From positions 1 to 64,000 of the IMG/VR virus record IMGVR_UViG_3300046519_000060: 64,000 nucleotides of DNA; one strand, 5' to 3'. The notes beneath the pieces were generated by a model that was given only the letters and a program-made list of their open reading frames with translations, was not told where the DNA came from and did no database searches. A program made the position numbers and the translations under genes. Every line of letters starts with the position of its first letter. The stretch's first letter is position 1. Source of the DNA: a virus (lineage: Duplodnaviria; Heunggongvirae; Uroviricota; Caudoviricetes). Of the stretch, positions 2,645 through 47,996 are shown piece by piece.

Positions 2645-2800
2645 ATGTTCCATACCGAAGATACCCCGTTTGAATCCTACGCCGATGCACTGGCGTATGC
2701 GATCCAAGAAGCCCAACAATCCGGCGCAAGCCTCTACGCCGTAATCGATTTAACAAACTTGGGAATTGTTGTTGACAAGACTCCCGAGTTTGGGATATGA
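2645..2800 (+). CDS. hypothetical small protein (start uncertain)
   Basis: track ORF 2576..2800 begins inside terminator; internal ATG at 2645 preferred. Confidence 0.3.
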   Translation: MFHTEDTPFESYADALAYAIQEAQQSGASLYAVIDLTNLGIVVDKTPEFGI

Positions 2801-2801
2801 T
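2772..2801 (+). promoter_or_regulatory. sigma70-like early promoter (TTGACA-18-TATGAT)
   Basis: ttgacaagactcccgagtttgggatatgat; member of repeated promoter family. Confidence 0.5.
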
Positions 2802-2854
2802 TCTTCTCATACCAACCGCCGATCTACAAAGAAGACCATCTAGGAGAGTAGAAC

Positions 2855-3115
2855 ATGTTGAGACTGCCGAATCGTGATTCCCACATCCGCGAATTGTTCG
2901 ACATGAACGATCTGGTCAGCCTAGCGTCCCCCGAGAACCGCATGAAGCTTCCGACCTTCCGCGAAGCCCTTGTAAGCGCCAAGCGCACGCTCGCGGGCGA
3001 CAAGGCGATCCGGGCAGTTCACACGCTGACGCTGCGTGCCAATGGCGAACTGTGGCTGATGAAGGTGGGTCCGCGTGGCGGGTGGAAGGTTCTCTGGAAC
3101 TTCGGTCAACTGTAA
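2855..3115 (+). CDS. hypothetical protein
   Basis: 86 aa; RBS ctaggagag. Confidence 0.5.
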   Translation: MLRLPNRDSHIRELFDMNDLVSLASPENRMKLPTFREALVSAKRTLAGDKAIRAVHTLTLRANGELWLMKVGPRGGWKVLWNFGQL

Positions 3116-3118
3116 CGC

Positions 3119-3147
3119 TTGACGAATTCCCAAATGTGGGATAAGAT
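3119..3147 (+). promoter_or_regulatory. sigma70-like early promoter (TTGACG-17-TAAGAT)
   Basis: ttgacgaattcccaaatgtgggataagat. Confidence 0.5.
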
Positions 3148-3176
3148 TCATACATCAACTCAACGGAGAGATTCAT

Positions 3177-3320
3177 ATGTGGAAAGTTCGTATCGCAGAC
3201 AAGGTGGACGGCGTGCAGTATTGGGCCATCGACAATGGCATCGATGCACCCGAGTACAGCACGTCTGCGCGCGTCGCACAGGCCATCGCTGATGTTCGCA
3301 ACGCACTCGATGCACAGTGA
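3177..3320 (+). CDS. hypothetical small protein (47 aa)
   Basis: ATG 7 nt after ggagag RBS in conserved leader caacggagagattcatATG. Confidence 0.4.
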   Translation: MWKVRIADKVDGVQYWAIDNGIDAPEYSTSARVAQAIADVRNALDAQ

Positions 3321-3328
3321 GGCGATCC

Positions 3329-3517
3329 ATGACGCGGGTCATCATACCGGTGAAGGATGGGAAGGGTGAGTGGATCGCGACTCGCAACCATCCCGGCGAA
3401 GCATGGGATGTCACGCATCCCCAAGGTCACTTCCAGTACTTCGGGAACACGCAGCAAGTCAAGACGTTGATGTTGAATATTCAGTACTTACAGAACAAGC
3501 ACGACGCAGAAAAGTAG
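3329..3517 (+). CDS. hypothetical protein
   Basis: track ORF 3317..3517; ATG at 3329. Confidence 0.4.
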   Translation: MTRVIIPVKDGKGEWIATRNHPGEAWDVTHPQGHFQYFGNTQQVKTLMLNIQYLQNKHDAEK

Positions 3518-3546
3518 TTGACGAGTTCCCAAGTTTGGGGTAATAT
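3518..3546 (+). promoter_or_regulatory. sigma70-like early promoter (TTGACG-17-TAATAT)
   Basis: ttgacgagttcccaagtttggggtaatat. Confidence 0.55.
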
Positions 3547-3575
3547 TCACACATCGACAACACGGAGAGATTCAT

Positions 3576-3920
3576 ATGAACTTGAACACGGATCACGCTG
3601 GTCGCGGTGTGGATGCCCTGAACGGGATTTTCGACGGCATGTTGACAAACCTTCAACACCAGTGGAAGCGCGAAGCAATGATCCTGAACGAATCGCAAGT
3701 CGAAGCCATCTACAGCGCGATGTGCGCACTCAACAACATCAGCGGCATCGTGCATGTTGTGATGCCCGGACAGACAGCGGGTGACACGATCACCGTGTTC
3801 CAAGAAGTGATGTCCCATGAAGTGGTCGTGATTCTCCGCTCGATGATCGAAGCGGAACCGGTCAAGACCGAACGCTACAAGGACCAAGGCGAGTTCGCGC
3901 AAGCCTACGGTCTGGACTAA
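3576..3920 (+). CDS. hypothetical protein
   Basis: 114 aa; leader cacggagagattcatATG identical to the 3177 gene leader. Confidence 0.5.
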   Translation: MNLNTDHAGRGVDALNGIFDGMLTNLQHQWKREAMILNESQVEAIYSAMCALNNISGIVHVVMPGQTAGDTITVFQEVMSHEVVVILRSMIEAEPVKTERYKDQGEFAQAYGLD

Positions 3921-3953
3921 AATACAAAAACTATCAACCGCGAGGAAACCAAA

Positions 3954-4856: not shown

Positions 4857-5048
4857 GTGAGGATTCGCATGTCGATGAAACTAGCACGTAAGGCCATCCG
4901 GCTTTTCAGTAACCCCGATAACCCGAAGTCGTTGAACCGAAGGATGCAGCGGCAATGGCTACGCAGCATGGAGTTCCTTGGGGACCGGCACTGCTTGCGT
5001 AAGGTCATGCCACGCATGACGGACGGCGACACTCGAATCCTTCGATAA
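4857..5048 (+). CDS. hypothetical basic protein
   Basis: 63 aa Arg-rich ORF; weak. Confidence 0.3.
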   Translation: MRIRMSMKLARKAIRLFSNPDNPKSLNRRMQRQWLRSMEFLGDRHCLRKVMPRMTDGDTRILR

Positions 5049-5054
5049 ACAAAA

Positions 5055-5087
5055 TGGGCGATAGTGGGAATTTACAACACTATCGCC
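5055..5087 (+). terminator. stem-loop (possible terminator/RNA-stabilising hairpin)
   Basis: gggcgatagtg ... cactatcgccc 11-bp stem; no T-run on plus strand. Confidence 0.3.
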
Positions 5088-5091
5088 CAAA

Positions 5092-5111
5092 CTTGTAGTT
5101 TTGGTGTATAA
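5092..5111 (+). promoter_or_regulatory. possible promoter (extended -10 TGTATAAT, weak -35)
   Basis: cccaaacttgtagttttggtgtataat resembles conserved promoter spacer. Confidence 0.35.
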
Positions 5112-5237
5112 TACGCATATTCAATCGGGAATTCACCAAGCCCGTCTCTGAGAAGTTCCTACCTGATGTATTGATCCCTCTGGATGTACCCATGCACTAG
5201 AGAAACTAGAAGCTGTAGAGAAGATTAGAACAACGAA

Positions 5238-8413: not shown

Positions 8414-9946
8414 ATGACCAAGCAATGTCCGCATTGCGATTCTGCGAAGGTGCAGAGTCGCGGGACCAAAACGAATCAAGCGGGTAGCACACGAAACCGC
8501 TATCAGTGCATGGACTGTGGTAAGTGGTTCAGTACGGTTGTGAGTGAAGTTGTTGAAGCTGCTGTTGACGTTCCGCGATTCAGTTCGCCGTTGCCGAAAG
8601 ACTTTGAAGGGTATAACCGCTTCGTGATTTCGGCAGTGCAGAACGATACGTCTGTGAATCGCGAGTTCCTTGCATCACTGGAACAATATTGTGAGTTCAA
8701 TCGTGCCAAGCTGATCCTTGTGCCGATCACCTACAAGGGCAACGAAGATTCGCAGTTCGCGGTCCAACCGGACCTGTTGGTGACGCAAGACGTGTTGCTC
8801 GCAACCAAGCTTCGTCTGTTGGCCCATGTGCAGATTTCCCCGACCATCGAAACGCCTTTGGCGGGTCTGGACTATCTGAGCAAGGGTAACAGCCTAATCA
8901 TCGCACATCCGCAACTTCAAATGCGGACGATTGCGACGCTGGACAATTCACCCGCACAACTTCATACAACTGGCGCGATCACGTATGCCAACTATGCACA
9001 GACGAAAACAGGCGAGAAAGCCCGGTTCAACCATTCACTTTCTGCCCTTATCGTTGAGAAAGACGATAATCAGTTCTACTGTCGTGTCCTTAATTGCGAC
9101 GACGATAACGGATTCTATGACCTCGACCTCTACTATGGACCGACCGGCGTACATCGTGCGGGTCAAGTAGAAGCCCTCATTACGGGCGATGAACACGCAA
9201 TGTTCACTGACCCACTGGTGAAGGAAGCGACGTACACCGGCGAACACTCGCTGGCTAACGTGCTGCGTCCAAAGAAGATCGTGCGGCATGACGTGCTGGA
9301 CTTCTTCACTGGTTCGCATCACCATCAGCATAGTTTCCTGTTGCAGTACGCGAAGCACAAGACCAAGACGAACGTCATCGAAGATGAACTGTCGTTGACG
9401 TTGAAGTACATCGCAGAGACGACGCCTTCGTATGCTGAGAACATCATGGTCGCATCGAACCACGTTGAGCATATGAACAAGTGGCTGGATACGATTGACC
9501 CGAAAGATGAAGTATGGAATGCCAAGCTGTACTACCGGATGATGTACCTGATGTTGGAACACATCGACCGGAACCCGATGGATATTCCGAACGCCTTCCA
9601 ACTTTGGGTAGCGACGACATCGCACGCGTTTGATGTACCGAAGCTTCGCTGGCTTGGCCGGAACGAACAGTACAAGATTCATGGCATCGAACTGTCGAAT
9701 CACGGTGACATGGGTATCAACGGTGCGCGTGGATCGCCCGCACAGTTCTCACGTCTGCCTGACAAGATGGTTGTAGGCCACTCGCATAGCCCGAGCATCA
9801 TGAAGGGCTGCTACACGGTTGGCACATCGACCGGGCGACTGGAATACACGAAGGGTCCGAGTAGTTGGGCGAACAGCCATGTCATCATCTACCCGAATGG
9901 GAAACGTCAGATGGTGACGATCATCAACGGGAAATATCGTCTGTGA
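8414..9946 (+). CDS. zinc-ribbon protein with C-terminal metallophosphoesterase-like motifs
   Basis: N-terminal CPHCDS...RYQCMDCGKWF zinc ribbon (InsA-like); downstream GDEH, SNHVEH, GHSH motifs in phosphoesterase order. Confidence 0.5.
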   Translation: MTKQCPHCDSAKVQSRGTKTNQAGSTRNRYQCMDCGKWFSTVVSEVVEAAVDVPRFSSPLPKDFEGYNRFVISAVQNDTSVNREFLASLEQYCEFNRAKLILVPITYKGNEDSQFAVQPDLLVTQDVLLATKLRLLAHVQISPTIETPLAGLDYLSKGNSLIIAHPQLQMRTIATLDNSPAQLHTTGAITYANYAQTKTGEKARFNHSLSALIVEKDDNQFYCRVLNCDDDNGFYDLDLYYGPTGVHRAGQVEALITGDEHAMFTDPLVKEATYTGEHSLANVLRPKKIVRHDVLDFFTGSHHHQHSFLLQYAKHKTKTNVIEDELSLTLKYIAETTPSYAENIMVASNHVEHMNKWLDTIDPKDEVWNAKLYYRMMYLMLEHIDRNPMDIPNAFQLWVATTSHAFDVPKLRWLGRNEQYKIHGIELSNHGDMGINGARGSPAQFSRLPDKMVVGHSHSPSIMKGCYTVGTSTGRLEYTKGPSSWANSHVIIYPNGKRQMVTIINGKYRL

Positions 9947-10665
9947 CCAAAATCCAAACCCTATCCGAATGGAAAACGGGTTTGGCGTACCACGCTACGC
10001 TGAACCCGGACCTGTGGAAGCATGACACGTTACTTCCTGACGTGAAGGCGGCGCTTGACAAGATCGCTGCCGACTTCATCAACTTCACCGGTATCGACCG
10101 GTCCAAGATCACGGACATCGTGATTACGGGTTCGAATTGCAACTACAACTATTCGTTCCTGTCGGACATCGATCTACATGTGGTTGCTGAGTACGATGAA
10201 GGTCACAAGAACGAAGCGGGCATTGGTGTTCAGGATGCCTTCAATGCGTTCAAGAACCTATACAACGCGTCGCATCACATCAGGGTCAAAGGTGTGCCGA
10301 TTGAAGTCTACGTGCAACCGACGAGCGAACACTTCACGTCCAATGCTGGCGTGTTCTCGTTGAAGTCGATGAAGTGGATTCAACACCCGGTCAAGGTGCA
10401 TGTTGATCTGGACGAACGGGAAATAAAGCGCAAGGCTGATCCCGTCATCCGTGATATTGACGCCATCGTAGACGGCAGAGTGACAGACCCGGCAAAGATT
10501 CATGCCGTGAAAGCGAAGATTCGACAGCTACGTGCTGCCGGGTTGGAAGCTGGTGGTGAGTTCGGCATCGAGAACTTGGCATTCAAGGCCATCCGAAATG
10601 CAGGATTCCTCGATAAGCTGTCCAAGTACTCCGACGCCTTGAACGATACTACGCTGTCTCTGTAG
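9943..10665 (+). CDS. nucleotidyltransferase (Pol-beta superfamily, MNT-like) domain protein
   Basis: GSNCNYNYSFLSDIDLHV fits GS-x9-13-(D/E)hDh motif; GTG start overlapping upstream stop (GTGA). Confidence 0.5.
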   Translation: MTKIQTLSEWKTGLAYHATLNPDLWKHDTLLPDVKAALDKIAADFINFTGIDRSKITDIVITGSNCNYNYSFLSDIDLHVVAEYDEGHKNEAGIGVQDAFNAFKNLYNASHHIRVKGVPIEVYVQPTSEHFTSNAGVFSLKSMKWIQHPVKVHVDLDEREIKRKADPVIRDIDAIVDGRVTDPAKIHAVKAKIRQLRAAGLEAGGEFGIENLAFKAIRNAGFLDKLSKYSDALNDTTLSL

Positions 10666-11176
10666 CTTTGTTGAGAACGTCTTGCTTGTGACCGAGATAC
10701 TTCACAGGCACATGATGACTGTTGAGGATCACGGTCATACTACCGTTTGTATATCCGTGGTAGCCGTGGTCAAGTACAGCGCGTTCGAAGTCGTTGTGTT
10801 CTTCTTCGCCGTTGTACTTGTGTTGTCCCGCTGTCTTGCTGATCGCAGCACGTTCGTCTGGATGTGCCGTAGCAGGATCGTAAATTCCATGCAGCGTTGC
10901 GCTATGCACATGCTGACCCAGACCGCCTTCATGCACAGGCGGCAACGGACCATGTTCTTCGGGTTTGTGGTTGTAGAAGTAGACCCGTTTCTTGATCCGT
11001 TCATCTTTGGTCCATTGAAGGCGCTTGCCTTCGGCACCCTTAATCCCCGTCCCCGAAAAACGACCGTCCAGATGGTCAAGTCCCGGCTTATTCGAGTAAT
11101 GAATGCCGTGGACGGTCACGCCTTTTGCTGGCGCAGCTTCCTCGCGTTCCGCAAGGAATCTTTTGAATGAGTGCAT
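10649..11176 (-). CDS. His-rich hypothetical protein (paralog of 29955 and 36570 products)
   Basis: minus-strand ORF trimmed to ATG 11176 with gggga RBS; longer form would overlap plus gene 11241. Confidence 0.45.
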   Translation of the reverse strand: MHSFKRFLAEREEAAPAKGVTVHGIHYSNKPGLDHLDGRFSGTGIKGAEGKRLQWTKDERIKKRVYFYNHKPEEHGPLPPVHEGGLGQHVHSATLHGIYDPATAHPDERAAISKTAGQHKYNGEEEHNDFERAVLDHGYHGYTNGSMTVILNSHHVPVKYLGHKQDVLNKATETA

Positions 11177-11205
11177 TGACAAATCCCCAAATTTGATGGT
11201 AATAT
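11176..11205 (+). promoter_or_regulatory. sigma70-like early promoter (TTGACA-18-TAATAT)
   Basis: ttgacaaatccccaaatttgatggtaatat. Confidence 0.5.
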
Positions 11206-11240
11206 TTAGACCTCTACCAACAACTTCGGGAGTTTGTGAA

Positions 11241-12547: not shown

Positions 12548-12575
12548 TTGACACGAATTCCCAAACCTGTATAAT
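12548..12575 (+). promoter_or_regulatory. sigma70-like early promoter with conserved spacer GAATTCCCAAACCTG
   Basis: ttgacacgaattcccaaacctgtataat. Confidence 0.6.
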
Positions 12576-12613
12576 CCTTTCCATCGCAGCACAAACCGAA
12601 CAGGAGAAAACAA

Positions 12614-13253: not shown

Positions 13254-13263
13254 TTGACAGACA

Positions 13264-13292
13264 TTCCCGCGTTTGGTAATATTCTTCTTATA
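13264..13292 (+). promoter_or_regulatory. sigma70-like early promoter with inverted repeat (PeSL-like)
   Basis: ttgacagacattcccgcgtttggtaatat followed by ccaaacgcgggaa, the complement of ttcccgcgtttgg. Confidence 0.55.
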
Positions 13293-13322
13293 CCAAACGC
13301 GGGAACAAACAGGAGAGAAACA

Positions 13323-13635
13323 TATGGGAATCAGCATCAAGTCGAAGTACGCACTGGAAGTCTATGAAACTCGCATGGTCGATGGTAAGCCGCGTAGCGT
13401 GCTGGCCTTCGAAGGTGCAACGTGGGATACCAAGCGTCACGGTCGCCCGGACACCAAGAACCTCGAAAAGTACGTGATGGCTTATGGTAAGTCGCTGGAA
13501 AAGGGCGGTTCGAACTTCCACATCACGGAAGCCAAGGGCTACGTCTCGTATCCGAATCGTGCGGTGATCCGATTCAATCACTCGAACGGCGCAACCGTCG
13601 CATCGTGGCAAGCGCCGCCGTTCATGGTGTGGTAA
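13323..13635 (+). CDS. hypothetical protein
   Basis: ATG after aacaggagagaaacatATG. Confidence 0.5.
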
Positions 13636-15323: not shown

Positions 15324-15571
15324 TGGCAACGACTGACGACATCCTGTACGGCGATGACAACCTCTGGAAGCTGCGTGGTGCAGAGGCGTCCGAAGTCATC
15401 GCCCAAAAGATCGAAGCGATGAAGCGCCTGTATCAAGAAGTCATCGCCATCGCGGACAACGCCGATCTAAGCGTGCATGTGACGTTCAGCTTCCCGGAAG
15501 GGCTGACGACCGGCCACAACGAATACTTCCGCCCAGAAGTCGCGTGGAACCCTTCTTCGAAATATTGCTGA
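15323..15571 (+). CDS. hypothetical protein
   Basis: TAATG overlap. Confidence 0.45.
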   Translation: MATTDDILYGDDNLWKLRGAEASEVIAQKIEAMKRLYQEVIAIADNADLSVHVTFSFPEGLTTGHNEYFRPEVAWNPSSKYC

Positions 15572-15591
15572 ATTCCCACGTTTGATTTTGC

Positions 15592-15620
15592 TTGACACGA
15601 CTCCCGGATGCGGGTATGAT
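15592..15620 (+). promoter_or_regulatory. sigma70-like early promoter with inverted repeat
   Basis: ttgacacgactcccggatgcgggtatgat; ctcccggatgcg pairs with downstream cgcatccgggag. Confidence 0.55.
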
Positions 15621-15656
15621 TCTTCTCATACCAACAACGCATCCGGGAGTTTTCAC

Positions 15657-17151: not shown

Positions 17152-17179
17152 TTGACAACCACTCCCAGACCTGTATAAT
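17152..17179 (+). promoter_or_regulatory. sigma70-like promoter (first of tandem pair)
   Basis: ttgacaaccactcccagacctgtataat. Confidence 0.55.
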
Positions 17180-17249
17180 CTGTTCTCAGGTTGAGACGCA
17201 AACCCAAACCGGGGTCGAAAGCCTGAGAGAAACAAAGTTGAAAATAGCT

Positions 17250-17277
17250 GTTGACAAGTAAGAACAAATCTGTATAA
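17250..17277 (+). promoter_or_regulatory. sigma70-like promoter (second of tandem pair)
   Basis: ttgacaagtaagaacaaatctgtataat. Confidence 0.55.
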
Positions 17278-17352
17278 TGTGATTCACGGTGAGGCACTAA
17301 GCAGTCCTAACCGCGATAACAAAACCAACCACTTTGAAAAAGGGAATACATC

Positions 17353-17978: not shown

Positions 17979-18590
17979 ATGAAGAAGATCATCGTCGCTG
18001 GTTTCCTCGCAGTTTCCGCAATCCTCGCACACGCGGGAAACGTTGTAGATGCGAACGCTACAACCACAACCAACACTCAATCGACTTCCGGTGCGGTCAA
18101 CTCAGGTGTCACGTTGCAGAACACCTTCAACAGCCCGGATAAGACCGAATACGGTGGTTCCTACACCGTCAAGTCGGCCCCGGCTATTGCTGCACCCGCT
18201 GGATATGGTTCGTGGTCCCAACAGAACTGTATGGTGACGGGGACCGGTGGATTCAGCATCATCGGATTCGGCGCAACCGGACAAGTCCCCATCGATGGCG
18301 CACGCTGCGACATGCGGGTGGACCAACAGAACATGAACGCCACGGCGATGACGATTCACAACTTCGTCGCGGCAAACCCGAGCATCAACCCTTCGTTGAA
18401 GCAGTCGTTGGACGAGAAAGCCGCCGCGATGCTACAAGCTGCTGGCGACATGTCGTGCCTGTCCTCGGATCGTCAACGCGCGGTGATGGAGAAGAAGGGG
18501 CTGTGCCGGGAAGTGGCCGACATTACCACGCTCGATCATCGCTTCGGTCAGCCGCGTTCGACGCAAATCGACTACAGCGCGGGAAATTGA
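17979..18590 (+). CDS. secreted hypothetical protein
   Basis: signal peptide MKKIIVAGFLAVSAILAHA; 203 aa. Confidence 0.5.
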   Translation: MKKIIVAGFLAVSAILAHAGNVVDANATTTTNTQSTSGAVNSGVTLQNTFNSPDKTEYGGSYTVKSAPAIAAPAGYGSWSQQNCMVTGTGGFSIIGFGATGQVPIDGARCDMRVDQQNMNATAMTIHNFVAANPSINPSLKQSLDEKAAAMLQAAGDMSCLSSDRQRAVMEKKGLCREVADITTLDHRFGQPRSTQIDYSAGN

Positions 18591-18615
18591 TAAGTTTTCC
18601 CAAACGTGGTATAAT
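18587..18615 (+). promoter_or_regulatory. sigma70-like promoter (TTGATA-17-TATAAT)
   Basis: ttgataagttttcccaaacgtggtataat. Confidence 0.5.
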
Positions 18616-18643
18616 TCGACATTAGATCGGATAGGGGAACAAG

Positions 18644-19503: not shown

Positions 19504-20580
19504 ATGATGACCAAGAAATACGATGTCGTCGTCTATATCGGACGATTCCAACCCTTCCATAACGCGCACCTTGAAACGATCCTTGCTGGCCTTGAAGTGG
19601 CAGATAAGGTAGTCGTCGTCATTGGTAGTGCGAACGAACCCCGTACCTACTTCCGCAATCCGTTCACGGTTCAAGAACGCGAATTCATGATCCGTCAAGG
19701 TCTGTCGGGTCACGGTCGCCTTCAAGATGTGTTGTTCACTTCGGTAGAGAACAACCCGTCAGATGCAGCATGGGCGGCAGATGTTGTCCAGAAGGTCGAG
19801 AATGTAGCAAGCGGCACTCTCGATACGATATGTGACCGTCAGCTTCGCATTGCCAAAATCGGCTTCGTGAAAGATGCTGGCGTGCAGCGTGACCTTGACC
19901 TGTTCCCTCAATGGCCGTATGTCGAGCACAAGAAGGAACAAGACCTTGATGCGACGCAGATTCGCAACGTGCTGTTTGGTGGTATGGGTCTACAGTTCCT
20001 TGAAGGTGTATGCCCGAAGAACGTGATTCGCTTTTTGGGCGACTTTACGTACTCCGAACAGTTCAAGCAACTGATGCGCGAGAAGAAGTACATTGAGGAC
20101 TACAAACAGCAGTTTAATGGTCTGCGCTACGCACCGACCTTCGTAACGGCTGATGCGATCCTGATTCAGTCGGGTCACGTTCTCCTGATCGAGCGCAAGG
20201 CAGAGCCGGGCAAGGGTTTGTGGGCGGTTCCCGGTGGGTTCCTGAACGCAGCAACGGACAAGTCTGTATTTGAAGCTGCGTTGCGTGAACTGAGCGAAGA
20301 AACGAAGGTGAAGGTCGCTGACCGTGTTCTTCGAAAGTCGTTCAAAGGTGTGCGTGTGTTCGATGCGATTGATCGTTCCGCGCGTGGCCGAACCATCACT
20401 CACGCACATGTGTTCGTGCTTGATGATGGGTTCGATCTTCCGAAAACCAAGGCGTCGGATGATGCAGCAAAGACGAAGTGGGTTCACATCAACGACATCA
20501 AGCGGGAAATGATGTTCGAAGATCATGATGAACTTGTGAAATGGGGCTGGTCTGTTGCGACAGCTAACGAAGTGAAGTAA
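19504..20580 (+). CDS. natV: bifunctional NMN adenylyltransferase / Nudix hydrolase (NadM/NatV-like)
   Basis: YIGRFQPFHNAH (H-x-G-H nucleotidyltransferase motif) plus Nudix box GGFLNAATDKSVFEAALRELSEETKV. Confidence 0.75.
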   Translation: MMTKKYDVVVYIGRFQPFHNAHLETILAGLEVADKVVVVIGSANEPRTYFRNPFTVQEREFMIRQGLSGHGRLQDVLFTSVENNPSDAAWAADVVQKVENVASGTLDTICDRQLRIAKIGFVKDAGVQRDLDLFPQWPYVEHKKEQDLDATQIRNVLFGGMGLQFLEGVCPKNVIRFLGDFTYSEQFKQLMREKKYIEDYKQQFNGLRYAPTFVTADAILIQSGHVLLIERKAEPGKGLWAVPGGFLNAATDKSVFEAALRELSEETKVKVADRVLRKSFKGVRVFDAIDRSARGRTITHAHVFVLDDGFDLPKTKASDDAAKTKWVHINDIKREMMFEDHDELVKWGWSVATANEVK

Positions 20581-20635: not shown

Positions 20636-21991
20636 ATGCAAAACGAAAACATCCAACTCGATCAAAACTTCGTCCTTGAATCGGACTCCTACAAATATTC
20701 GCACACGCCGGAAGTGTACCCGGAAGGCGCAGAAGCCCTTCACTCGTATCTCTCGGCCCGCGTGAAAGGTTCGCGCGTGGTGCAGTTTGGTGTGTCCATG
20801 TGGATCAAGAAGAAGTTGCTGGCCCCGATCACGCGGTACATGGTTGATGAAGCGGAAGAATTCATCAACAAGCACATCGGCCCCGGTGGTTTCGACCGTA
20901 CCATGTGGGACCACATCCTGCACAACTACGGCGGGTTCATCCCGTTGACGATCCGTGGTCTGCCGGAAGGCACGGTCACGAAAAGTGATGACACGTTGCT
21001 GACGATCCAATGTGATGATCCGATCTGCTTCCCGCTGGCGCAGTTCATCGAAGCATCGATTCAATCGGACCTCTGGTACAGCACGACGATTGCCACGAAC
21101 GATCTGGAAAACTACGAAGTCGCCAAAAGCCACTTCGATCTGTTCTCGGATCAACCGGACATGCTCCCGTTCATGCTGCATGACTTCGGCGCGCGTGGTG
21201 CGACGTGTGAAGAACAGCGTCAAATCGGCGGCGCTGCGCATCTGATCTTCTTCCAAGGTTCGGACAACATCAGCGGCATCCGTGCAGCAAACCTGTTCTA
21301 TGGTTGCGACATGGCCGCGTATTCGGTTCGTGCCACGGAACACAGCATCCAGTGCGCATATGGTCCCGATCATCAGGAAGCCTATCTTCGTCGTGTTCTC
21401 GATGCACATGCGAAGCCGGGTAACATCGTGTCGATTGTGCTGGACGGCTACAACGTCTGGCGTGAAGCTGAACTTCTGTGTACCACGTTCAAGCAACAAA
21501 TCATCGACAGCGGTGCGAAGGTTGTGTTTCGCCCGGATTCGGGTGACATGTTCGAAGTCATCCCGCGTCTGTTGGATATGCAAGCAGAGGCGTTCGGCTA
21601 CACGGTCAACAGCAAGGGCAAGAAGGTAATCAAGCATGTCGGCATCATCCAAGGTGACGGCATCGACAAGACGACTTTCATGCTGCTGATCCAGAAGGTT
21701 GTATCCCTCGGCTATGCGCCCGAGTGCGTCCTGTTGGGTTCTGGTGGTGGACTGTTGCAGAAGGTCAACCGCGATACCTTGAAGTTCGCGCAGAAGGCCG
21801 CTGCTATCAAGATCAATGGCGAGTGGCAAAACATCTGGAAAGACCCGATTACCGATCCGGGTAAGAAGTCCAAGACCGGCATCCAAGATGATCCTAGATT
21901 CGTCACCTTCTATACCCCGGAAGATGGCTTGATCTACGATGAAAACCTCGCGACGATCCGCGAGCGTGCGCTGGCTGGCGCTGCTGTGTAA
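20636..21991 (+). CDS. nadV: nicotinamide phosphoribosyltransferase (NAMPT/NadV)
   Basis: 451 aa, N-terminal ILNTDSYKxxH-like LESDSYKYSH and overall NAMPT length/organisation next to natV. Confidence 0.75.
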   Translation: MQNENIQLDQNFVLESDSYKYSHTPEVYPEGAEALHSYLSARVKGSRVVQFGVSMWIKKKLLAPITRYMVDEAEEFINKHIGPGGFDRTMWDHILHNYGGFIPLTIRGLPEGTVTKSDDTLLTIQCDDPICFPLAQFIEASIQSDLWYSTTIATNDLENYEVAKSHFDLFSDQPDMLPFMLHDFGARGATCEEQRQIGGAAHLIFFQGSDNISGIRAANLFYGCDMAAYSVRATEHSIQCAYGPDHQEAYLRRVLDAHAKPGNIVSIVLDGYNVWREAELLCTTFKQQIIDSGAKVVFRPDSGDMFEVIPRLLDMQAEAFGYTVNSKGKKVIKHVGIIQGDGIDKTTFMLLIQKVVSLGYAPECVLLGSGGGLLQKVNRDTLKFAQKAAAIKINGEWQNIWKDPITDPGKKSKTGIQDDPRFVTFYTPEDGLIYDENLATIRERALAGAAV

Positions 21992-22006
21992 ATTCCCAGA
22001 TTTGGG

Positions 22007-22035
22007 TTGACATGTTAAGGACCGACAGGTATGAT
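22007..22035 (+). promoter_or_regulatory. sigma70-like promoter with inverted repeat
   Basis: ttgacatgttaaggaccgacaggtatgat; aaggaccgacagg pairs with downstream cttgttggtcctt. Confidence 0.5.
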
Positions 22036-22068
22036 GTGCTTGTTGGTCCTTTTTATTTGGAGATAGCT

Positions 22069-22371: not shown

Positions 22372-22399
22372 AATTCCCGCGTTTGGGTATTGACGAAGG

Positions 22400-22428
22400 A
22401 CTCTCAAACCTGTAGAATCCTTTTCATT
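22400..22428 (+). promoter_or_regulatory. sigma70-like promoter (TTGACG-17-TAGAAT)
   Basis: ttgacgaaggactctcaaacctgtagaat. Confidence 0.55.
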
Positions 22429-29540: not shown

Positions 29541-29568
29541 TTGACAAAGATGGGGATTCGCGTAGAAT
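29541..29568 (+). promoter_or_regulatory. sigma70-like promoter with inverted repeat
   Basis: ttgacaaagatggggattcgcgtagaat; ggggattc / gaatcccc palindrome. Confidence 0.5.
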
Positions 29569-29602
29569 CCCCATCATCGTTTCTACAGCACGGATCAGTC
29601 AC

Positions 29603-30854: not shown

Positions 30855-30884
30855 GTTAAGCGAAGGCCGGTCGAAAGATCGGCC
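30855..30884 (+). terminator. rho-independent terminator
   Basis: ggccggtcgaaagatcggcc followed by tttttttt. Confidence 0.7.
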
Positions 30885-30903
30885 TTTTTTTTGTTTCTGG
30901 GTC

Positions 30904-30931
30904 TTGACACGAATTCCCAAACATGTATAAT
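30904..30931 (+). promoter_or_regulatory. sigma70-like promoter with conserved spacer
   Basis: ttgacacgaattcccaaacatgtataat. Confidence 0.6.
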
Positions 30932-30966
30932 CATTTTCATCGAGAACACATTTGGGAGCGAAAGAC

Positions 30967-31624: not shown

Positions 31625-31896
31625 TGTCGAATCCTATCCAAGCCGTCAAAACAGTTTTGATCGTTCCTGCTGTCACGGATCAAGCTGGACAGTGCCGCAT
31701 CGTTCAGACCGGCACGTTCGCCAAGATTCGGAACCCTCTGGCCGACTACCGGTTGAATCCGCACCTGTGGCATGAAGTTGGCCTGATGAACTTCGCGGGC
31801 GAACTGGTCTGCTACGAAGGACCGGATGAAGAATCCGAACACATCCGGGATTGTGAACCTCTGGCCGCAGGTTTGGTTTTTGTTTTCGAAGCTTGA
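31624..31896 (+). CDS. hypothetical protein
   Basis: TGATG overlap. Confidence 0.4.
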   Translation: MSNPIQAVKTVLIVPAVTDQAGQCRIVQTGTFAKIRNPLADYRLNPHLWHEVGLMNFAGELVCYEGPDEESEHIRDCEPLAAGLVFVFEA

Positions 31897-31921
31897 CATC
31901 AGATTCCCAAACCTGTAGAAT
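31893..31921 (+). promoter_or_regulatory. sigma70-like promoter with conserved spacer
   Basis: ttgacatcagattcccaaacctgtagaat. Confidence 0.6.
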
Positions 31922-31954
31922 GCTTTTCATCGACAACGAACCGGGATACCAGAC

Positions 31955-38218: not shown

Positions 38219-38713
38219 ATGAAAAGAAGAACTCTCATAGCGGTTCTACTGGCCGTGCTGTGCATCAATACAGCGACGCCCATAGAACATCCCCCGACCC
38301 CGCTAGGGTCCAACGTCCAGAAGGACATCAACTGTCTCGCAGAGAACGTCTACTACGAGGCGCGCGGCGAACCGGACGCAGGTAAGAAGGCTGTTGCCGA
38401 AGTGACGATCAACCGTGTTCAAGCACCCGGATTCCCAGATAGTGTCTGTGGTGTGGTGAAGCAGAAGGCTGTACAAGGTTGTCAATTCTCATGGGTCTGT
38501 CAGCGTCATCGACCCGTCATCGACCACAATTCCCAAAGTTGGGTCGAATCTAAGAATATTGCCACAGATGTATTGCTCTTTGACGACCAACCCGGTATAA
38601 TGCGTAAACAGTCGGCACTCTACTATCACGCCGATCACGTCAGACCTAGTTGGGCGCGACACATGAAGTTCATCAAACGCATTGGTGGACACCTTTTCTA
38701 TACAACGAAGTAA
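38219..38713 (+). CDS. SleB-like cell wall hydrolase with signal peptide
   Basis: CLAENVYYEARGEPDAGKKAVAEVTINRV matches SleB/cell-wall-hydrolase family core; N-terminal signal. Confidence 0.7.
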   Translation: MKRRTLIAVLLAVLCINTATPIEHPPTPLGSNVQKDINCLAENVYYEARGEPDAGKKAVAEVTINRVQAPGFPDSVCGVVKQKAVQGCQFSWVCQRHRPVIDHNSQSWVESKNIATDVLLFDDQPGIMRKQSALYYHADHVRPSWARHMKFIKRIGGHLFYTTK

Positions 38714-38718
38714 AGTAC

Positions 38719-38991
38719 ATGCAAGCTGAATCGCAAGAAGTAACCGTCACCGACCAATTCCTGATTACCAAGGAATTCGCTTCCGCCGAAGCGTTCTCCA
38801 TGTACATCGAAGATCGTGCCATCAAAGAAGGTGAAAGCCTGATCGACACCATCATTGCGTATTGCGAAGAACGTGACATCGACCCCGAAGTGACTGCACG
38901 ACTGGTCACGAAATCCCTCAAAGAGAAGCTTGCCGTCGAATTCGAAGATCGCAACATGCTTCGCTCTGAACACGGCACTCTGGACTTCTAA
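38719..38991 (+). CDS. 33: possible late transcription co-activator gp33-like
   Basis: acidic 90 aa, C-terminal TLDF like T4 gp33 C-terminus; sits in 33-59-32 order as in T4. Confidence 0.4.
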   Translation: MQAESQEVTVTDQFLITKEFASAEAFSMYIEDRAIKEGESLIDTIIAYCEERDIDPEVTARLVTKSLKEKLAVEFEDRNMLRSEHGTLDF

Positions 38992-45438: not shown

Positions 45439-45466
45439 TTGACATGAATTCCCAAACCTGTATAAT
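45439..45466 (+). promoter_or_regulatory. sigma70-like promoter with conserved spacer
   Basis: ttgacatgaattcccaaacctgtataat. Confidence 0.6.
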
Positions 45467-45494
45467 CCTTTCCATCGACTACAGGAGAGCAAAT

Positions 45495-45748: not shown

Positions 45749-45919
45749 ATGACGAATCAAGAACTGCGGGCGAAGCGCGAAGGCCGGAACGCATGGGGTC
45801 GTGACTACCCGCTGTCGCTGAACCCCTACCGCCACGATGAACCGAAGCTGCGCGAAGCGTGGCGTGACGGCTGGATCGAGCGTGACGCCGGTCAACAGAT
45901 GGACGCCAACGAAGATTAA
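45749..45919 (+). CDS. ribosome modulation factor (RMF)-like micro-protein
   Basis: 56 aa; RNAWGRDYPLSLNPY...WRDGWIERDAG resembles E. coli RMF RAHQRGYQAG...CPY...WLGGWREAMA. Confidence 0.4.
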   Translation: MTNQELRAKREGRNAWGRDYPLSLNPYRHDEPKLREAWRDGWIERDAGQQMDANED

Positions 45920-45927
45920 GGAAAACC

Positions 45928-46140
45928 ATGAAGTACGAACAACTCGCAACCGACCTACTGTTCGGGTCCGTCAAGGTCGTGGACATCGGCCCGAAGTACG
46001 GACTACAGTTCCGCAAGGGTAAAGACGCCACGCACATCATCAAGGCACGCCAGAAGGCCACGAAAACCGGGCATGGCAAGGTAGAATTCGAACTCTCGAT
46101 GCTGGAAGTCTACTTGAAGGAAATACTGAAAAAGGCTTGA
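45928..46140 (+). CDS. hypothetical protein
   Basis: RBS taaggaaaaccATG. Confidence 0.45.
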   Translation: MKYEQLATDLLFGSVKVVDIGPKYGLQFRKGKDATHIIKARQKATKTGHGKVEFELSMLEVYLKEILKKA

Positions 46141-46166
46141 CTCCGAATTCCCAAGTCTGGTATAGT
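46137..46166 (+). promoter_or_regulatory. sigma70-like promoter (TTGACT-18-TATAGT)
   Basis: ttgactccgaattcccaagtctggtatagt. Confidence 0.5.
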
Positions 46167-46195
46167 TTCACCATCGTAACGCATCGGGGAAAGAC

Positions 46196-46474
46196 GTGGA
46201 CATCAAGGAACTGAAAGCGGCACTGGCGACGAAGGGCTGGACGGAAGATGCCTACGGCCACATGAAGCGCGAAGTGCAGACCGTGAACGGCACGACGCTT
46301 TTCCGCGTGAAGGTCCAGAAAATTTCGATCCGGCTGGAACGCCAGTACACAATCGAAGCGATGGCTTACTCCCCGGCGCGCAAGGATTGGTCGCTTGTTG
46401 AAAGCGTTTACCTAAAAGATGTCAAACTCCGCGAAGACGGTGGTATCATCCTCGGTCGCAAGGTTTTGAAATAA
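46196..46474 (+). CDS. hypothetical protein (GTG start)
   Basis: cggggaaagacGTG. Confidence 0.4.
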   Translation: MDIKELKAALATKGWTEDAYGHMKREVQTVNGTTLFRVKVQKISIRLERQYTIEAMAYSPARKDWSLVESVYLKDVKLREDGGIILGRKVLK

Positions 46475-46513
46475 TCTTGCGCCTTGGGGACAATCTACAT
46501 CAGGAAGCGGAAC

Positions 46514-46870
46514 ATGAAAGAAATAACCAGTTCGGATTTTATGCCAGAACTTGCCGAAAGCATGGTGAATGTTTTCTGTAAGTTCCCGGTCAGTAACATC
46601 GAACACCTGATCCATACCATCGAAGAAAAACACAAACACGAGTATGGAGAATTGGCGTCGAAGCTGCTGAATACGATCAAGCTTGCCGTGGAAGAACTCG
46701 GCGCTAAGGTGACAGGTTCGTGCATGATCGATGATCTTTCTGTTGTCATTCAGTACGACGAAAGAATTACCGTCGAGAAGATCAAGCACAGTGTTGGGCG
46801 TGCGTGCTACTTCTTCTGGCAGCACAACATCGGGTTCACGAAAGAGGCCCAAGCTGCGCTGGAAAGTTAG
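46514..46870 (+). CDS. hypothetical protein
   Basis: caggaagcggaacATG. Confidence 0.45.
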   Translation: MKEITSSDFMPELAESMVNVFCKFPVSNIEHLIHTIEEKHKHEYGELASKLLNTIKLAVEELGAKVTGSCMIDDLSVVIQYDERITVEKIKHSVGRACYFFWQHNIGFTKEAQAALES

Positions 46871-46896
46871 TCGATGAAATAAACAGGTTTGGGGTG

Positions 46897-46924
46897 TTGA
46901 CAAACATTCCCAGACCTGTATAAT
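46897..46924 (+). promoter_or_regulatory. sigma70-like promoter with conserved spacer
   Basis: ttgacaaacattcccagacctgtataat. Confidence 0.6.
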
Positions 46925-46958
46925 TCTTTTCATCGACAACACGAACGGAGCGCACCAC

Positions 46959-47948
46959 ATGAACAAGATCAACGCTAACCAATTCCCGATCACCTTCTCG
47001 CTGGTTGGTGACAAGGCAGCGCACTACATCGCCAATCGTTTCGACGGCATCATCGCTGAAATCAACGAAGTCATCGACGCGGGCGAAATCATCGTCTCGC
47101 ACAACAAAGACCTTCGCAGCAAGATCAACAACGTGGTCGAAGCCGCGTTCAAGACCTACATCAATGAGCCGTTCTGCTACGGCGGCAAGTGGGAATCGCT
47201 CCCGGAAGAAATGAAGCACATCGGCTATGACACGCCGAACGAAGCCCGCCTGATCCCGGCATTCGAGCGTAAGATCGCCCGTCTGCGCAAGCAAGATCAC
47301 GCGCTGGTCATCGAATCGCGCAAGCTTATCGAAGAATTGAAGCCGCTGGCCGATGTGGTCGCCTTCTTGAAATCCATCGAAGTCAAGGCCACGGTCAAGC
47401 GTGCGGCAGAGAAGGTAAAGAAGGAAGAAGAACTGCGCATCAAGAATTCGACCGATGCCGTGTACCTCGCAGTTCTGCCGATGAAGGAACTCGCAGAGAA
47501 CCGCGCCGAAGTAGAATTCCGTATCATGGCTTCACAGGCGGGCGTGAAAATCTCGGAAGCTGGCGGCGTTCTCGATACGCTGGCCCCGATCCCGAAGAAG
47601 GCCAACGACTACGCCTACAACCTCGCGATACAACAGCGTCAGTTCTACCTCTCGATCTGCGACGATGACGGCGGCATCTTGAAGCTGTCGGAAGAACGCA
47701 TCGAAAAGGAAGTCGCCAAGGTTCGCCGTGATGCAGCATTCGAATTCGAAGCCTACGTCGCGAAGCTGAATGCTAAGATTGGCGCGAAGGTGGAGAAGGC
47801 AGTTCTGGAAGGTTCGCCGTGGAATGGATCGTACCTGACGGTGTATATCGACGGTCAGGATACGCAAGTCTGGAACACGAAGGTCATCGTCAACGTGTCG
47901 AAGCTTGGTAAGCTGTTCAACCAGTGGCCGACCCGCCAAGTGTCGTAA
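46959..47948 (+). CDS. hypothetical protein
   Basis: 329 aa; leader acgaacggagcgcaccacATG. Confidence 0.5.
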   Translation: MNKINANQFPITFSLVGDKAAHYIANRFDGIIAEINEVIDAGEIIVSHNKDLRSKINNVVEAAFKTYINEPFCYGGKWESLPEEMKHIGYDTPNEARLIPAFERKIARLRKQDHALVIESRKLIEELKPLADVVAFLKSIEVKATVKRAAEKVKKEEELRIKNSTDAVYLAVLPMKELAENRAEVEFRIMASQAGVKISEAGGVLDTLAPIPKKANDYAYNLAIQQRQFYLSICDDDGGILKLSEERIEKEVAKVRRDAAFEFEAYVAKLNAKIGAKVEKAVLEGSPWNGSYLTVYIDGQDTQVWNTKVIVNVSKLGKLFNQWPTRQVS

Positions 47949-47967
47949 AGAAAATCAGGTTTGGGTA

Positions 47968-47996
47968 TTGACGAACGATACCCAAACCTGTATTAT
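47968..47996 (+). promoter_or_regulatory. sigma70-like promoter with inverted repeat
   Basis: tttgggtattgacgaacgatacccaaacctgtattat; tttgggtat / atacccaaa. Confidence 0.55.

Follow-up and report, generated by a model that had tools for sequence, protein, structure and literature searches.

The stretch of DNA analysed here, hereafter the window, comprises positions 1 to 64,000 of the IMG/VR virus record IMGVR_UViG_3300046519_000060 (Caudoviricetes) and carries, between its small genes, a family of promoter cassettes that is the subject of this work. An earlier note on this DNA had likened these cassettes to the promoter early stem-loops (PeSLs) of T4-type phages. The window has a G+C content of approximately 52% and a gene complement of T4 type. 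Matches to Pfam and PHROG profiles include gp32, gp59, the late co-activator gp33, T4 baseplate proteins, gp53, and a gp48-like tube cap, along with T4 RNase H, a SegE-like endonuclease, PhoH, dCMP deaminase, a T5 A1-like gene, and genes of nicotinamide adenine dinucleotide (NAD) salvage. RB49 gp32, gp59, and rnh also matched the window by tblastn. No nucleotide match for 20 kb of the window was found with megablast among 50,697 phage records, and the nearest isolates (BUCT-ZZ01, pf16, and the Sinorhizobium phiM12 group) share 24-42% protein identity with it. The source is an uncultured, deep-branching T4-like phage.

The relatives used for comparison were all metagenomic. Two 168-kb IMG/VR contigs, joined from loci L006/L029/L031 and L007/L028/L030, are referred to as A and B; the set also included L008-L010, which are three contigs of lesser length, and a number of contigs from samples Ga0134125 and Ga0134126. 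They are collinear with the window, with DNA identities of 70-88%, and cassettes occur at orthologous positions in A, B, L008, and L009.

A family of promoter cassettes in the small-gene blocks

Pattern scans of the window returned more promoter-like sequences than expected. TTGACA-N17-TATAAT with at most one mismatch was matched 5 times against 0.14 expected, and the 15-mer GAATTCCCAAACCTG with at most three mismatches was matched 15 times against 1.9 expected. A regular-expression scan combined with an nhmmer profile resolved 18 cassettes of the form TTGACA–spacer–TATAAT having in common a 13-nucleotide (nt) spacer signature, ATTCCCARRYNTG, which we call M. Seventeen of these are on the plus strand (2772, 3119, 3518, 11176, 12548, 13254, 15592, 17152, 18587, 22390, 23633, 30904, 31893, 45439, 46137, 46897, and 47968) and one is on the minus strand (63027). 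Four further sigma70-consensus promoters, at 17251, 22007, 25476, and 29541, lack M in the spacer. Across all 22 sites the −35 and −10 hexamers are 16-18 nt apart and match the consensus at ≥ 9 of 12 positions, with 9 of 22 sites matching at 11-12 positions. An independent consensus-promoter scan also placed these 22 sites at the top of its ranking, with 9-12 of 12 matches. Orientation is nearly uniform (21/22 on the plus strand), and every cassette points the same way as the gene that follows it. They occur only within blocks of small genes; the blocks of replication (32-45 kb) and structural (49-62 kb) genes contain none.

The earlier note had described more than 20 near-identical cassettes with an invariant spacer. 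All sites that it listed exist to within 10 nt (13264 is placed here at 13254, 22400 at 22390, and a tail at 13287 at 13277), and the family is real, but its members are not near-identical: pairwise identity over 60 nt averages 55% and ranges from 39% to 78%. The most alike pairs are 46897/47968 (78%) and 3119/3518 (77%), and 12548 and 45439 have an exact 28-nt core in common. Nor is the spacer invariant, as an exact 15-mer spacer is common to 12548 and 45439 only; the conserved part is the 13-nt M, at a variable offset from the −35. The leader CATCGACAAC, which had been said to recur, is common among cassettes but absent from some, and a second shared tail, TATGATTCTTCTCATACC, is exact at 2796 and 15615 but a three-mismatch variant at 13277.

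Each cassette occupies the space that separates the stop codon of a small gene from the start codon of its downstream neighbour. The upstream stop codon is mostly found 0-30 nt before the −35, often as a TAG fused to TTGACA, and the 25 nt upstream of cassettes are 58.7% A+T compared with 47.7% for the window. Downstream of the −10, a discriminator rich in pyrimidines leads to a CAT where the start site is expected, then to an unstructured CA-rich leader of the form CATCGACAAC or CATACCAAC, and finally to a GGAG-type ribosome site. From the start of the −35 to the start codon is 56-83 nt, except at 17251 (102 nt) and 17152 (201 nt), both measured to the gene start at 17353. The genes that follow are mostly small ORFans. 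Ten cassette-proximal open reading frames (ORFs) were tested and had no significant Pfam match or matched only PHROGs of unknown function; two weak Pfam matches among them were below curated cut-offs.

The spacer signature and its conservation

A logo built from 67 non-redundant cassettes of the whole clade gives M as A-T-T-C-C-C-A-R-R-Y-N-T-G, with approximately 17 bits of information. Its CCC hardly varies, if at all, and 64-65 of the 67 cassettes have the TG. In spacers of 17-18 nt, M extends to the palindrome TTCCC-N6-GGGAA (2772, 3119, 3518, and 63027), which is also complete at extra copies at 21991 and 22372; most sites keep the left half alone. In 16-nt spacers, the right half is overwritten by the −10, so that M ends in CCTG directly before TATAAT. 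This is the majority form, class A, in which the TG lies at −14/−13, flush against TATAAT. A TGn was marked by scan in 11176, 13254, 18587, and 46137, plus 23633 with its GATAAT box. The register of M is variable: its CCC begins at a distance of 3-7 nt from the −35, and 10-14 nt separate that point from the −10. Extra copies of M occur directly 5' of the −35, some direct (15571, 21991, 22372, and 63034) and others inverted (2753, 47955, and one before 46897), and a position weight matrix (PWM) scan showed that high-scoring M sites concentrate at promoters. An EcoRI site, GAATTC, lies within GAATTCCC in the class A spacers at 12555, 30911, 45446, and 46145. It is probably incidental, since other copies read CATTCC, GATTCC, or GACTCC.

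Alignment of orthologous cassettes revealed a position-specific pattern of constraint. Column identity in the −35 was 100% for TTGA, 90% for the C, and 77% for the final A, and the −10 was 80-100% identical. Within M, the TCCCA core was 87-100% identical, the centre 61-93%, and the TG 96-100%. By comparison, the linker between the −35 and M was 40-70% identical, the discriminator 50-72%, and the CATCG following it 69-95%. The constraint on M is therefore comparable to that on the core promoter elements.

This pattern bears on whether the common spacer and leader have any function. They could instead have hitch-hiked on recent promoter duplications or been homogenized by gene conversion (concerted evolution). 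Such an origin would fit the very alike pairs described above, as well as lineage flavours of the M centre (AAACCTG mostly in the window group and AASSTTGG in L008/L009) that hint at homogenization, and T4-type phages are known to recombine efficiently on short homologies (PMC2839356). However, mean identity among paralogs is just 55%, M persists at orthologous sites of genomes with 70-88% nucleotide identity, and conversion tracts would not give a core at 87-100% next to a linker at 40-70% and a centre at 61-93%. Because conservation is position-specific, simple hitch-hiking or conversion is argued against, and we consider a functionless spacer very improbable. The very recent duplication proposed in the earlier note is contradicted by the same observation, given that M was kept at orthologous promoters while the neighbouring linker diverged.

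A stronger alternative concerns the purpose of M. In its full form, TTCCC-N6-GGGAA, M could be the recognition site of a trans-acting factor that boosts or shuts off the promoter class together. Candidates for this factor include a phage early or virion-delivered protein, a host protein, or a phage-modified RNA polymerase, and hairpins would be partly a by-product of inverted M copies. This possibility is compatible with PeSL-type promoters and differs solely in what M is for. It would explain why M is conserved as sequence, and not just as complementarity, across 67 cassettes, why it is as conserved as the −35 and −10 between orthologs while the adjoining linker drifts, and why it is retained where no pairing partner exists. 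The clustering of high-scoring M sites at promoters and the extra copies 5' of the −35 in either orientation (2753, 15571, 21991, 22372, 47955, and 63034) also favour a factor, as does the structure of class B sites, which are palindromes with half-sites about one helical turn apart. T4 early promoters similarly have extra consensus of no known function and a shut-off mechanism that is not understood (PMC2988021), and Arbiol et al. speculated that the PeSL stem motif might be a protein target (PMC2839356). Nevertheless, the register of M is not fixed, which fits simple occlusion better than activation, and the right half-site is usually replaced by the −10. Orthologs of 46897 in A and B have lost the TCCC core yet are still promoter-like; this loss and the variable register argue against a strict activator site. 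No classical repressor or helix-turn-helix family was found among 89 small proteins of the window, where the search for a regulator turned up only gp33 and a T4 DsbA-like protein, the latter being the only DNA-binding match. Likewise, no MotA/AsiA-type family was present among the Pfam families listed for the 64-kb window. In an informal comparison, we know of no fit between M and the motifs of sigma32, sigmaE, sigma54, PurR/LacI-type regulators, marbox, NarL, or the MotA box.

On balance, we regard a factor-binding purpose for M as unlikely but not negligible. We also doubt its more specific form, in which M would be the recognition element of a trans-acting system (a phage early or injected protein, or a phage-modified RNA polymerase) that switches the promoter class together. 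Contact with host or phage-modified RNA polymerase, an operator of some protein, and a shared homology patch remain candidate readings of M. Were a trans-acting system to exist, it would constitute a "spacer-operator regulon" in a deep-branching T4-like clade. If M is a factor site, it would offer a testable entry into the control of T4-type early promoters, including their long-unexplained shut-off.

Hairpins and ribosome-site pairing

We compared the folding of each cassette with that of dinucleotide shuffles. Strong hairpins were predicted in eight cassettes, with z-scores of −4.3 to −9.9 in seven (15592, −9.9; 13254, −8.5; 47968, −7.4; 22007, −7.2; 29541, −5.9; 46897, −5.1; 2772, −4.3) and −2.85 in 25476. 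Approximately 8-10 class A cassettes, such as 12548, 45439, and 22390, folded no better than shuffles (z near 0). Their stems are placed differently: at 2772, 46897, and 47968 an upstream inverted M pairs with the spacer M and the −35 falls in the loop, and at 13254, 15592, 22007, 25476, and 29541 the −10 and start site are part of the loop or 3' arm. Inverted repeats across the −10 had been reported at five sites. Four of these were borne out (13254, 15592, 22007, and 29541; z = −5.9 to −9.9), but the repeat at 47968 spans the −35. Short spacer palindromes forming stems of 4-5 bp occur at 3119, 3518, 23633, and 63027. An independent scan flagged 22017-22051, 29549-29575, 47956-47990, and 2782-2795 as terminator-like at the level of sequence pattern.

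Five hairpins (29541, 25476, 13254, 22007, and 47968) were maintained across the window, A, and B. That of 29541 has undergone three compensatory and two wobble changes, with its −10 shifting from TAGAAT to TAAGAT in step with the other arm. At 13254, a G-C pair is replaced by A-T in A and B, and the sequence in L009 is different and still paired. The hairpins at 22007 and 47968 were kept via wobble changes alone. Among one-sided changes, 15 were of the G·U type and 4 of the A·C type on the sense strand. This excess hints that pairing matters in the RNA, a weak indication because structure prediction itself favours G·U.

In a subset of cassettes, the 3' arm includes the ribosome site. This is the case for 15592 and its orthologs, the orthologs of 46137 in A and B, 11176, and in part 30904 and 63027. 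Predicted pairing implies a layout that sequesters the Shine-Dalgarno (SD) sequence around an internal promoter in this subset only, rather than in the whole family. Pairing of a spacer was better to the ribosome site of its own cassette than to sites elsewhere in the family (permutation p = 0.01), an effect driven by 15592, 11176, 30904, and the A and B orthologs of 46137. An SD context complementary to M (TYTGGGAG) was found at 5/21 cassette genes versus 1/105 other genes. We also considered M as a general anti-SD arm and rejected it, as this holds for the subset alone and the stronger pairing of M to the ribosome site at cassette genes is confounded with the stronger SD of these genes. Hairpins would form only in read-through RNA because the 5' arm is upstream of the predicted start site.

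The orthologs of 46137 (A 46917 and B 48139) have a spacer box and ribosome site that are complementary over 13 bp (CGAATCCCCAAGT / ACTTGGGGATTCG). The window's own 46137 has lost most of this pairing, which makes the locus a natural on/off comparison for the idea of SD masking.

Cassettes and gene gain, loss, and replacement

To locate differences in gene content, we chained blastn matches of the window to A and B and counted clean presence/absence differences. There were 14 clean indels, of which 7 had a boundary inside or abutting a cassette. Clean indel boundaries fell at 7/20 cassette junctions versus 13/86 other junctions (Fisher odds ratio 3.0, p = 0.056), and the available relatives are too diverged for a sharp breakpoint test. 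Relative A lacks the unit at 3156-3672, located between the tandem cassettes 3119 and 3518 of the window, and has a single cassette at that point. Single-ORF insertions are located directly upstream of 12548, 13254, and 31893 and directly downstream of 2772, 22390, and 23633, and unrelated sequence replaces the genes after 29541, 30904, 45439, and 47968 in relatives. When the window was compared with locus L004, the sole shared part was an 87-nt terminator-plus-cassette stretch at 30904. The gene-shuffling role that had been ascribed to the cassettes thus gains from half of the clean indels abutting a cassette and from one falling between tandem cassettes, but enrichment at junctions was not significant, and we consider the role suggestive.

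Some insertions are located away from cassettes. A 728-nt insertion (9943-10665) right after the T5 A1-like gene contains a 240-amino-acid (aa) ORF with a GTG start and no Pfam match; it is absent in both 168-kb relatives and has no cassette at its bounds. Insertions of 190-910 nt in A and/or B, with no cassette nearby, correspond to window positions 50262-50323, 53279-53292, 38713-38719, and 24297-24337, two of which are inside the structural gene block. Given the SegE-like gene in the window, it is a possibility that these A/B insertions are homing endonuclease genes.

Interpretation of the cassettes

Taken together, we think it likely that these elements are composite regulatory cassettes of PeSL type, belonging to a T4-like phage that is deep-branching and uncultured. 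The earlier PeSL reading for a T4-type genome was largely right, as the matches to gp32, gp59, gp33, baseplate proteins, and gp53 and the RB49-like cassette layout attest. Our interpretation builds on observed family statistics, orientation, geometry, conservation, hairpin stability and covariation, and some coincidence with indels.

Under this PeSL-type interpretation, host RNA polymerase would fire the cassette promoters right after infection, and small accessory genes would be expressed. The spacer M, or other spacer sequence, would provide one arm of a stem. Its partner could be situated upstream, so that the −35 is looped out, inside the spacer itself, or in the 5' untranslated region (UTR), in which case the −10 and start site are looped out and the ribosome site is sometimes covered. 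In read-through RNA the hairpin may cause attenuation or termination, or it may hide the ribosome site. RNA started at the cassette's own promoter would lack the 5' arm and be free for translation, so that each gene would be insulated by its cassette. Being dispersed and similar in sequence, the cassettes would also mark boundaries of gene gain, loss, and replacement. We infer promoter activity, early timing, terminator or attenuator effects, SD masking, and a part in recombination from the features described above.

Several observations weigh against the PeSL-type interpretation. Approximately ten cassettes keep M without a significant hairpin (e.g., 12548, 45439, 17152, 22390, and 18587), so that stem-loops alone cannot account for why M is conserved. 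Relatives do not keep the hairpins at 46897 and 31893, and at 3119 and 3518 the palindromic spacers yield stems of only 4-5 bp. Promoter use and timing are predicted from the consensus. Indel enrichment at cassette junctions was not significant (p = 0.056 for clean indels, p = 0.21 for all breaks), and the two-cassette topology predicted by the PeSL recombination model was seen in one event only. Finally, the window's cassette profile had no significant match in 50 kb of RB49 holding its PeSLs (nhmmer, best E = 0.08).

We also considered that the elements might not be host-sigma70 promoters at all. Phage sigma sites, replication or packaging signals, or the ends of mobile elements could resemble the consensus, and the T4 late promoter TATAAATA is missing from the window. 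Yet the hexamers are perfect or near-perfect and 16-18 nt apart, co-orientation with genes is strict, the distance to the SD and ATG is fixed, and the CAT start-site context is located at the expected distance. The restriction to small accessory-gene blocks and the direct parallel with experimentally tested RB49 PeSLs also speak for sigma70 promoters. We therefore find a different kind of element hardly credible.

Individual cassettes along the window

The cassettes differ in the form of M and in their surroundings; those described below are on the plus strand unless stated otherwise. The first (2772-2854; TTGACA-18-TATGAT) has the palindromic M CTCCCGAGTTTGGGA and the SD GGAGAG and precedes an 86-aa ORF at 2855. 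Just 5' of its −35 lies an inverted extra M (AATTCCCAAGTTTGT; 2753-2767, minus strand, PWM score 19.6), which forms the 5' arm of a hairpin with the spacer M, conserved in A and B, that has the −35 in its loop. Next is a tandem pair. Its left member (3119-3176; TTGACG-17-TAAGAT, palindromic M TTCCCAAATGTGGGA) precedes a 47-aa ORF, and at its right member (3518-3575; TTGACG-17-TAATAT, palindromic M TTCCCAAGTTTGGGG) the TAG of the upstream gene abuts the −35.

The divergent cassette at 11176-11240 (TTGACA-18-TAATAT, M variant ATCCCCAAATTTG) has a spacer that pairs with its SD region, CTTCGGGAG, and orthologs in A, B, L008, and L009. A minus-strand ORF (10649-11176) begins within this cassette, and the ribosome-site region of that ORF, AAATTTGGGGATTTGTCAA, is the reverse complement of the −35 and M of 11176, with 30 nt involved on both strands. 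The class A cassette at 12548-12612 (TTGACA-CGAATTCCCAAACCTG-TATAAT) matches the consensus at 12/12 positions with a 16-nt spacer and has no hairpin (z = +0.66). The cassette at 13254-13323 has a 15-bp hairpin whose 5' arm is the spacer M and whose 3' arm, in the 5' UTR, is complementary to it; the loop holds the −10. The cassette at 15592-15656 has a nested hairpin, with 5' arm ACTCCCGGATGCG in the spacer and 3' arm CGCATCCGGGAGT including the SD GGGAG. Its spacer-to-ribosome-site duplex was predicted at −29.3 kcal/mol, and those of its orthologs at −23.8 (A) and −18.9 kcal/mol (B). An extra direct M (AATTCCCACGTTTGA; 15571-15585, plus strand), found as a PWM match 5' of this −35, is conserved in A and B.

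A class A cassette at 17152-17250 (12/12 consensus, with orthologs in A and B) has no ORF directly behind it. It would transcribe approximately 70 nt containing the hairpin CTCAGG...CCTGAG, followed by a sigma70-consensus promoter without M (17251-17352; 12/12) and a 75-nt leader before a 176-aa ORF. The cassette and the start of its downstream stretch are kept in A and B, and promoter 17251 is specific to the window, having no ortholog in either. The region 17152-17352 could be a small RNA or a long regulated leader; it had no Rfam match. Further downstream, the cassette at 18587-18643 (TTGATA-17-TATAAT, M TTCCCAAACGTGG) has a TGn before its −10.

Two sites near 22 kb have an extra palindromic M in front. 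The first of these M copies (AATTCCCAGATTTGG; 21991-22005, plus strand, PWM score 19.6) is directly 5' of the −35 of promoter 22007 (22007-22068; TTGACA-17-TATGAT), in which a 16-bp hairpin made by the spacer and the early transcript holds the −10 in its loop and is followed by TTTTTATTT. This hairpin was the top terminator-like match in its scan and is kept in A and B via G-U-type changes. The second (AATTCCCGCGTTTGG; 22372-22386, plus strand) is identical in A and B and lies 5' of the −35 of the class A cassette at 22390-22452 (TTGACG-17-TAGAAT, M variant CTCTCAAACCTG), behind which is a 61-aa ORF absent in A and B. The cassette at 23633-23690 (TTGACG-17-GATAAT, M variant AACCCAAGTCTGG) was missing from the earlier note, and the ORF behind it is absent in B. 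The promoter at 25476-25551 (TTGACA-18-TACAAT) has no M, a hairpin over the −10 that shows two compensatory and four wobble changes relative to A and B, and the SD context CCTTTGGGAG. At 29541-29602 (TTGACA-16-TAGAAT), an 11-bp hairpin formed by GATGGGGATTC/GAATCCCCATC has the −10 in its 3' arm and is terminator-like; its stem pairs a G-run with a C-run, as in RB49.

A conventional terminator hairpin with a T-run (30862-30887, plus strand) ends 17 nt before the class A cassette at 30904-30966 (12/12 consensus). The M of this cassette is partly complementary to the SD context CATTTGGGAG, and its downstream genes are replaced in A. The class A cassette at 31893-31954 (TTGACA-17-TAGAAT) has just upstream a 90-aa ORF that is absent in A and B. 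Another, at 45439-45494, has the exact core TTGACA-TGAATTCCCAAACCTG-TATAAT and opens a variable block at a strand switch, with its downstream genes replaced in both A and B. The cassette at 46137-46195 (TTGACT-18-TATAGT) has M TTCCCAAGTCTGG, and in its A and B orthologs M pairs with the SD region over a perfect 13 bp (−23.8 and −22.0 kcal/mol). The class A cassette at 46897-46958 (12/12 consensus) forms a hairpin with its upstream inverted M that has the −35 in the loop. The cassette named 47968 (47953-48029) has a perfect 12-bp core of inverted M copies (CAGGTTTGGGTA / TACCCAAACCTG) within a 15-bp stem around the −35, followed by TATTATTCTC. Like 22007, it was the top terminator-like match in its scan, and it is conserved in A and B with G-U-type changes. 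The single minus-strand cassette (62967-63048; TTGACA-17-TAGAAT), with palindromic M CTCCCAGACTTGGGA and an extra M upstream, would drive a 114-aa ORF at 62622-62966.

Distribution and other features of the genome

The cassette family was not found in BUCT-ZZ01 (41 kb) or in 38 more distant loci, and M was found neither at the annotated promoters of pf16 nor in the pf16 paper. The "phage-specific promoters" of pf16 were dropped as a comparison, as they resemble ribosome-site regions and are uninformative. A scan of metagenomes gave 48 matches, mostly by chance, with the only true relatives being contigs of Ga0134125 and Ga0134126. A scan of genome contigs for TTCCCAAACCTGTATAAT gave 16 matches versus approximately 17 by chance, none with a cassette, and hence offered no clue to the host.

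Searching window positions 1-64000 for the T4 late promoter TATAAATA returned no match, even though the window has gp33 (38719-38991) and numerous genes for structural proteins. This clade probably uses a late promoter unlike that of T4. A promoter-like TG-TATAAT-ACGCA box precedes the RNase H gene (window 5047-5125) and is conserved in five genomes (L008 6835, L009 3658, A 6923, and B 6883 in the relatives). This box lacks a −35 in the window, A, and B, where a 9-bp hairpin (GGGCGATAG...CTATCGCCC) precedes it. Its −10 and start region recur in L008 and L009, there together with M and a weak −35, TTGCAC. A similar sequence, TATAATGCGTA, is upstream of gp33 (38596-38606). TG-TATAAT-ACGCA may represent a second, perhaps middle-type, promoter class.

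Paralogs are also present in the window, with six ORFs matching PHROG 20647 (function unassigned) and four matching HEAT/LRV repeat families. Between cassette-rich blocks lies an NAD-salvage pair consisting of a nicotinamide mononucleotide adenylyltransferase/Nudix fusion (19507-20580) and a nicotinamide phosphoribosyltransferase (20636-21991). NAD-salvage pairs of similar kind occur in KVP40-type phages. Transfer RNA and Rfam scans of the window found nothing.

Comparison with known systems

The closest parallel is with the PeSLs of RB49 and phi1, which are dispersed cassettes in hyperplastic regions, where A/T-rich DNA holding the stop codon of the gene before is followed by a consensus sigma70 promoter and then by the SD and start codon of an ORFan (Arbiol et al. 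2010, PMC2839356). Their stem-loop of a G-run and a C-run can be found upstream or downstream of the promoter boxes, over them, or between them, five positions in all, mostly between the boxes or over the −10, and promoter and terminator activity, inter-cassette recombination, and mini-circle formation were shown for RB49 (PMC2839356). The RB49 sequences run from TTGACA to TATAAT, with a stem-loop of a G-run and a C-run either in the spacer or covering the −10, and continue into a leader rich in CA (CATCGAAAC / CATACCAAC), GGAG, and ATG, as exemplified by TTGACA-GGGGATCGGTGATCCCC-TATAAT-gcacacataccaacgagatataGGAGaatcaaaaATG. The window shares with RB49 and phi1 a T4-type genome and dispersed, intergenic, near-perfect TTGACA/TATAAT cassettes, which in the window appear to cluster in variable regions. 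Common to both are also C-run/G-run stem-loops, found at part of the window's cassettes, that lie upstream of the promoter, between its boxes, or over either box, an upstream stop abutting the promoter within an A/T-richer stretch, and the GGAG and ATG of a small ORFan. The CA-rich leaders are alike (CCATCGAAACGAAAC and CATACCGAAAC in RB49; CATCGACAAC and CATACCAAC in the window), and the window hairpin at 29541, GGGGATTC...GAATCCCC over the −10, has the same design as RB49 GGGGGTAGTAATATACCCCC.

There are, however, clear differences. Stem polarity is mostly reversed, being CCC...GGG in the window and GGGG...CCCC in RB49. About half of the window's cassettes keep the 5' half, TTCCCAAACCTG, alone; they cannot form the stem, and are nonetheless conserved across species. 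Several window hairpins include the ribosome site. The window phage has 52% G+C and is uncultured, and its cassette functions are read from sequence, whereas those of RB49 were shown experimentally. The comparison with early promoters of related phages that the earlier note had proposed thus bears out the layout and leader style, but sequence homology was not detected. Because the window's profile fails to detect the RB49 PeSLs, the relation is one of kind and not demonstrable homology. This is in keeping with the finding that each phage group has different PeSL consensus sequences (Comeau et al. 2014, PMC4122927). The PeSLs and PmSLs of PST/T4 and nt-1/KVP40 resemble the window in having a group-specific promoter/stem consensus and at least some cassettes beside insertions, deletions, and replacements (PMC4122927). 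They differ in that their stem-loop is just upstream and their promoters deviate from sigma70, whereas the window has consensus promoters, overlapping stems, and a conserved spacer box.

T4 early promoters offer a second comparison. They have extra consensus partly without known function, which may be tied to Alt-modified polymerase, and the mechanism of their shut-off is unclear, although it is not AsiA (Hinton 2010, PMC2988021). Like the window's cassettes, the T4 "uber" UP/−35/TGn/−10 promoters hold more conserved information than sigma70 needs (PMC2988021). The T4 early consensus has a GTTTAC-type −35 and TGn at −15/−14, in contrast to TG at −14/−13 against TATAAT and a C-rich spacer box in the window (PMC2988021). 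Window cassettes accordingly fall outside the T4 early class as characterized by TGn at −15/−14 with −35, −10, and UP element.

For the subset with a paired ribosome site, the nearest precedent is T4 genes e, soc, 49, and I-TevI, whose ribosome site is masked in long transcripts and for which a promoter inside the hairpin gives translatable RNA (Uzan and Miller 2010, PMC3014915). At 15592, 11176, the 46137 orthologs, and partly 30904 and 63027, only read-through RNA would likewise mask the ribosome site. The internal promoter in T4 is late and provides temporal control, whereas in this minority of window cassettes it is of sigma70 type and would be predicted to insulate adjacent early units. 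A further analogy is with lambdoid morons (Hendrix et al. 2000, as discussed in PMC2839356), which are also single accessory genes with their own promoter and terminator. Morons have no conserved flanking cassette in common and are often antisense to their neighbours, whereas in the window the regulatory cassette itself is repeated (PMC2839356).

Set against these systems, our results would extend PeSL-type cassettes from the T4-like phages of coliphage and vibriophage groups to a distant, GC-rich, uncultured lineage. At approximately 60 nt, the cassettes are compact and strong-looking and could be tried as synthetic-biology parts. Two features go beyond the PeSL papers: hairpins around the −10 and start site that are kept by compensatory changes across species, and a spacer box under purifying selection like the −35 and −10, even without a pairing partner. 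This wider range favours seeing cassettes of this kind as a general device by which the variable regions of T4-type genomes are organised.

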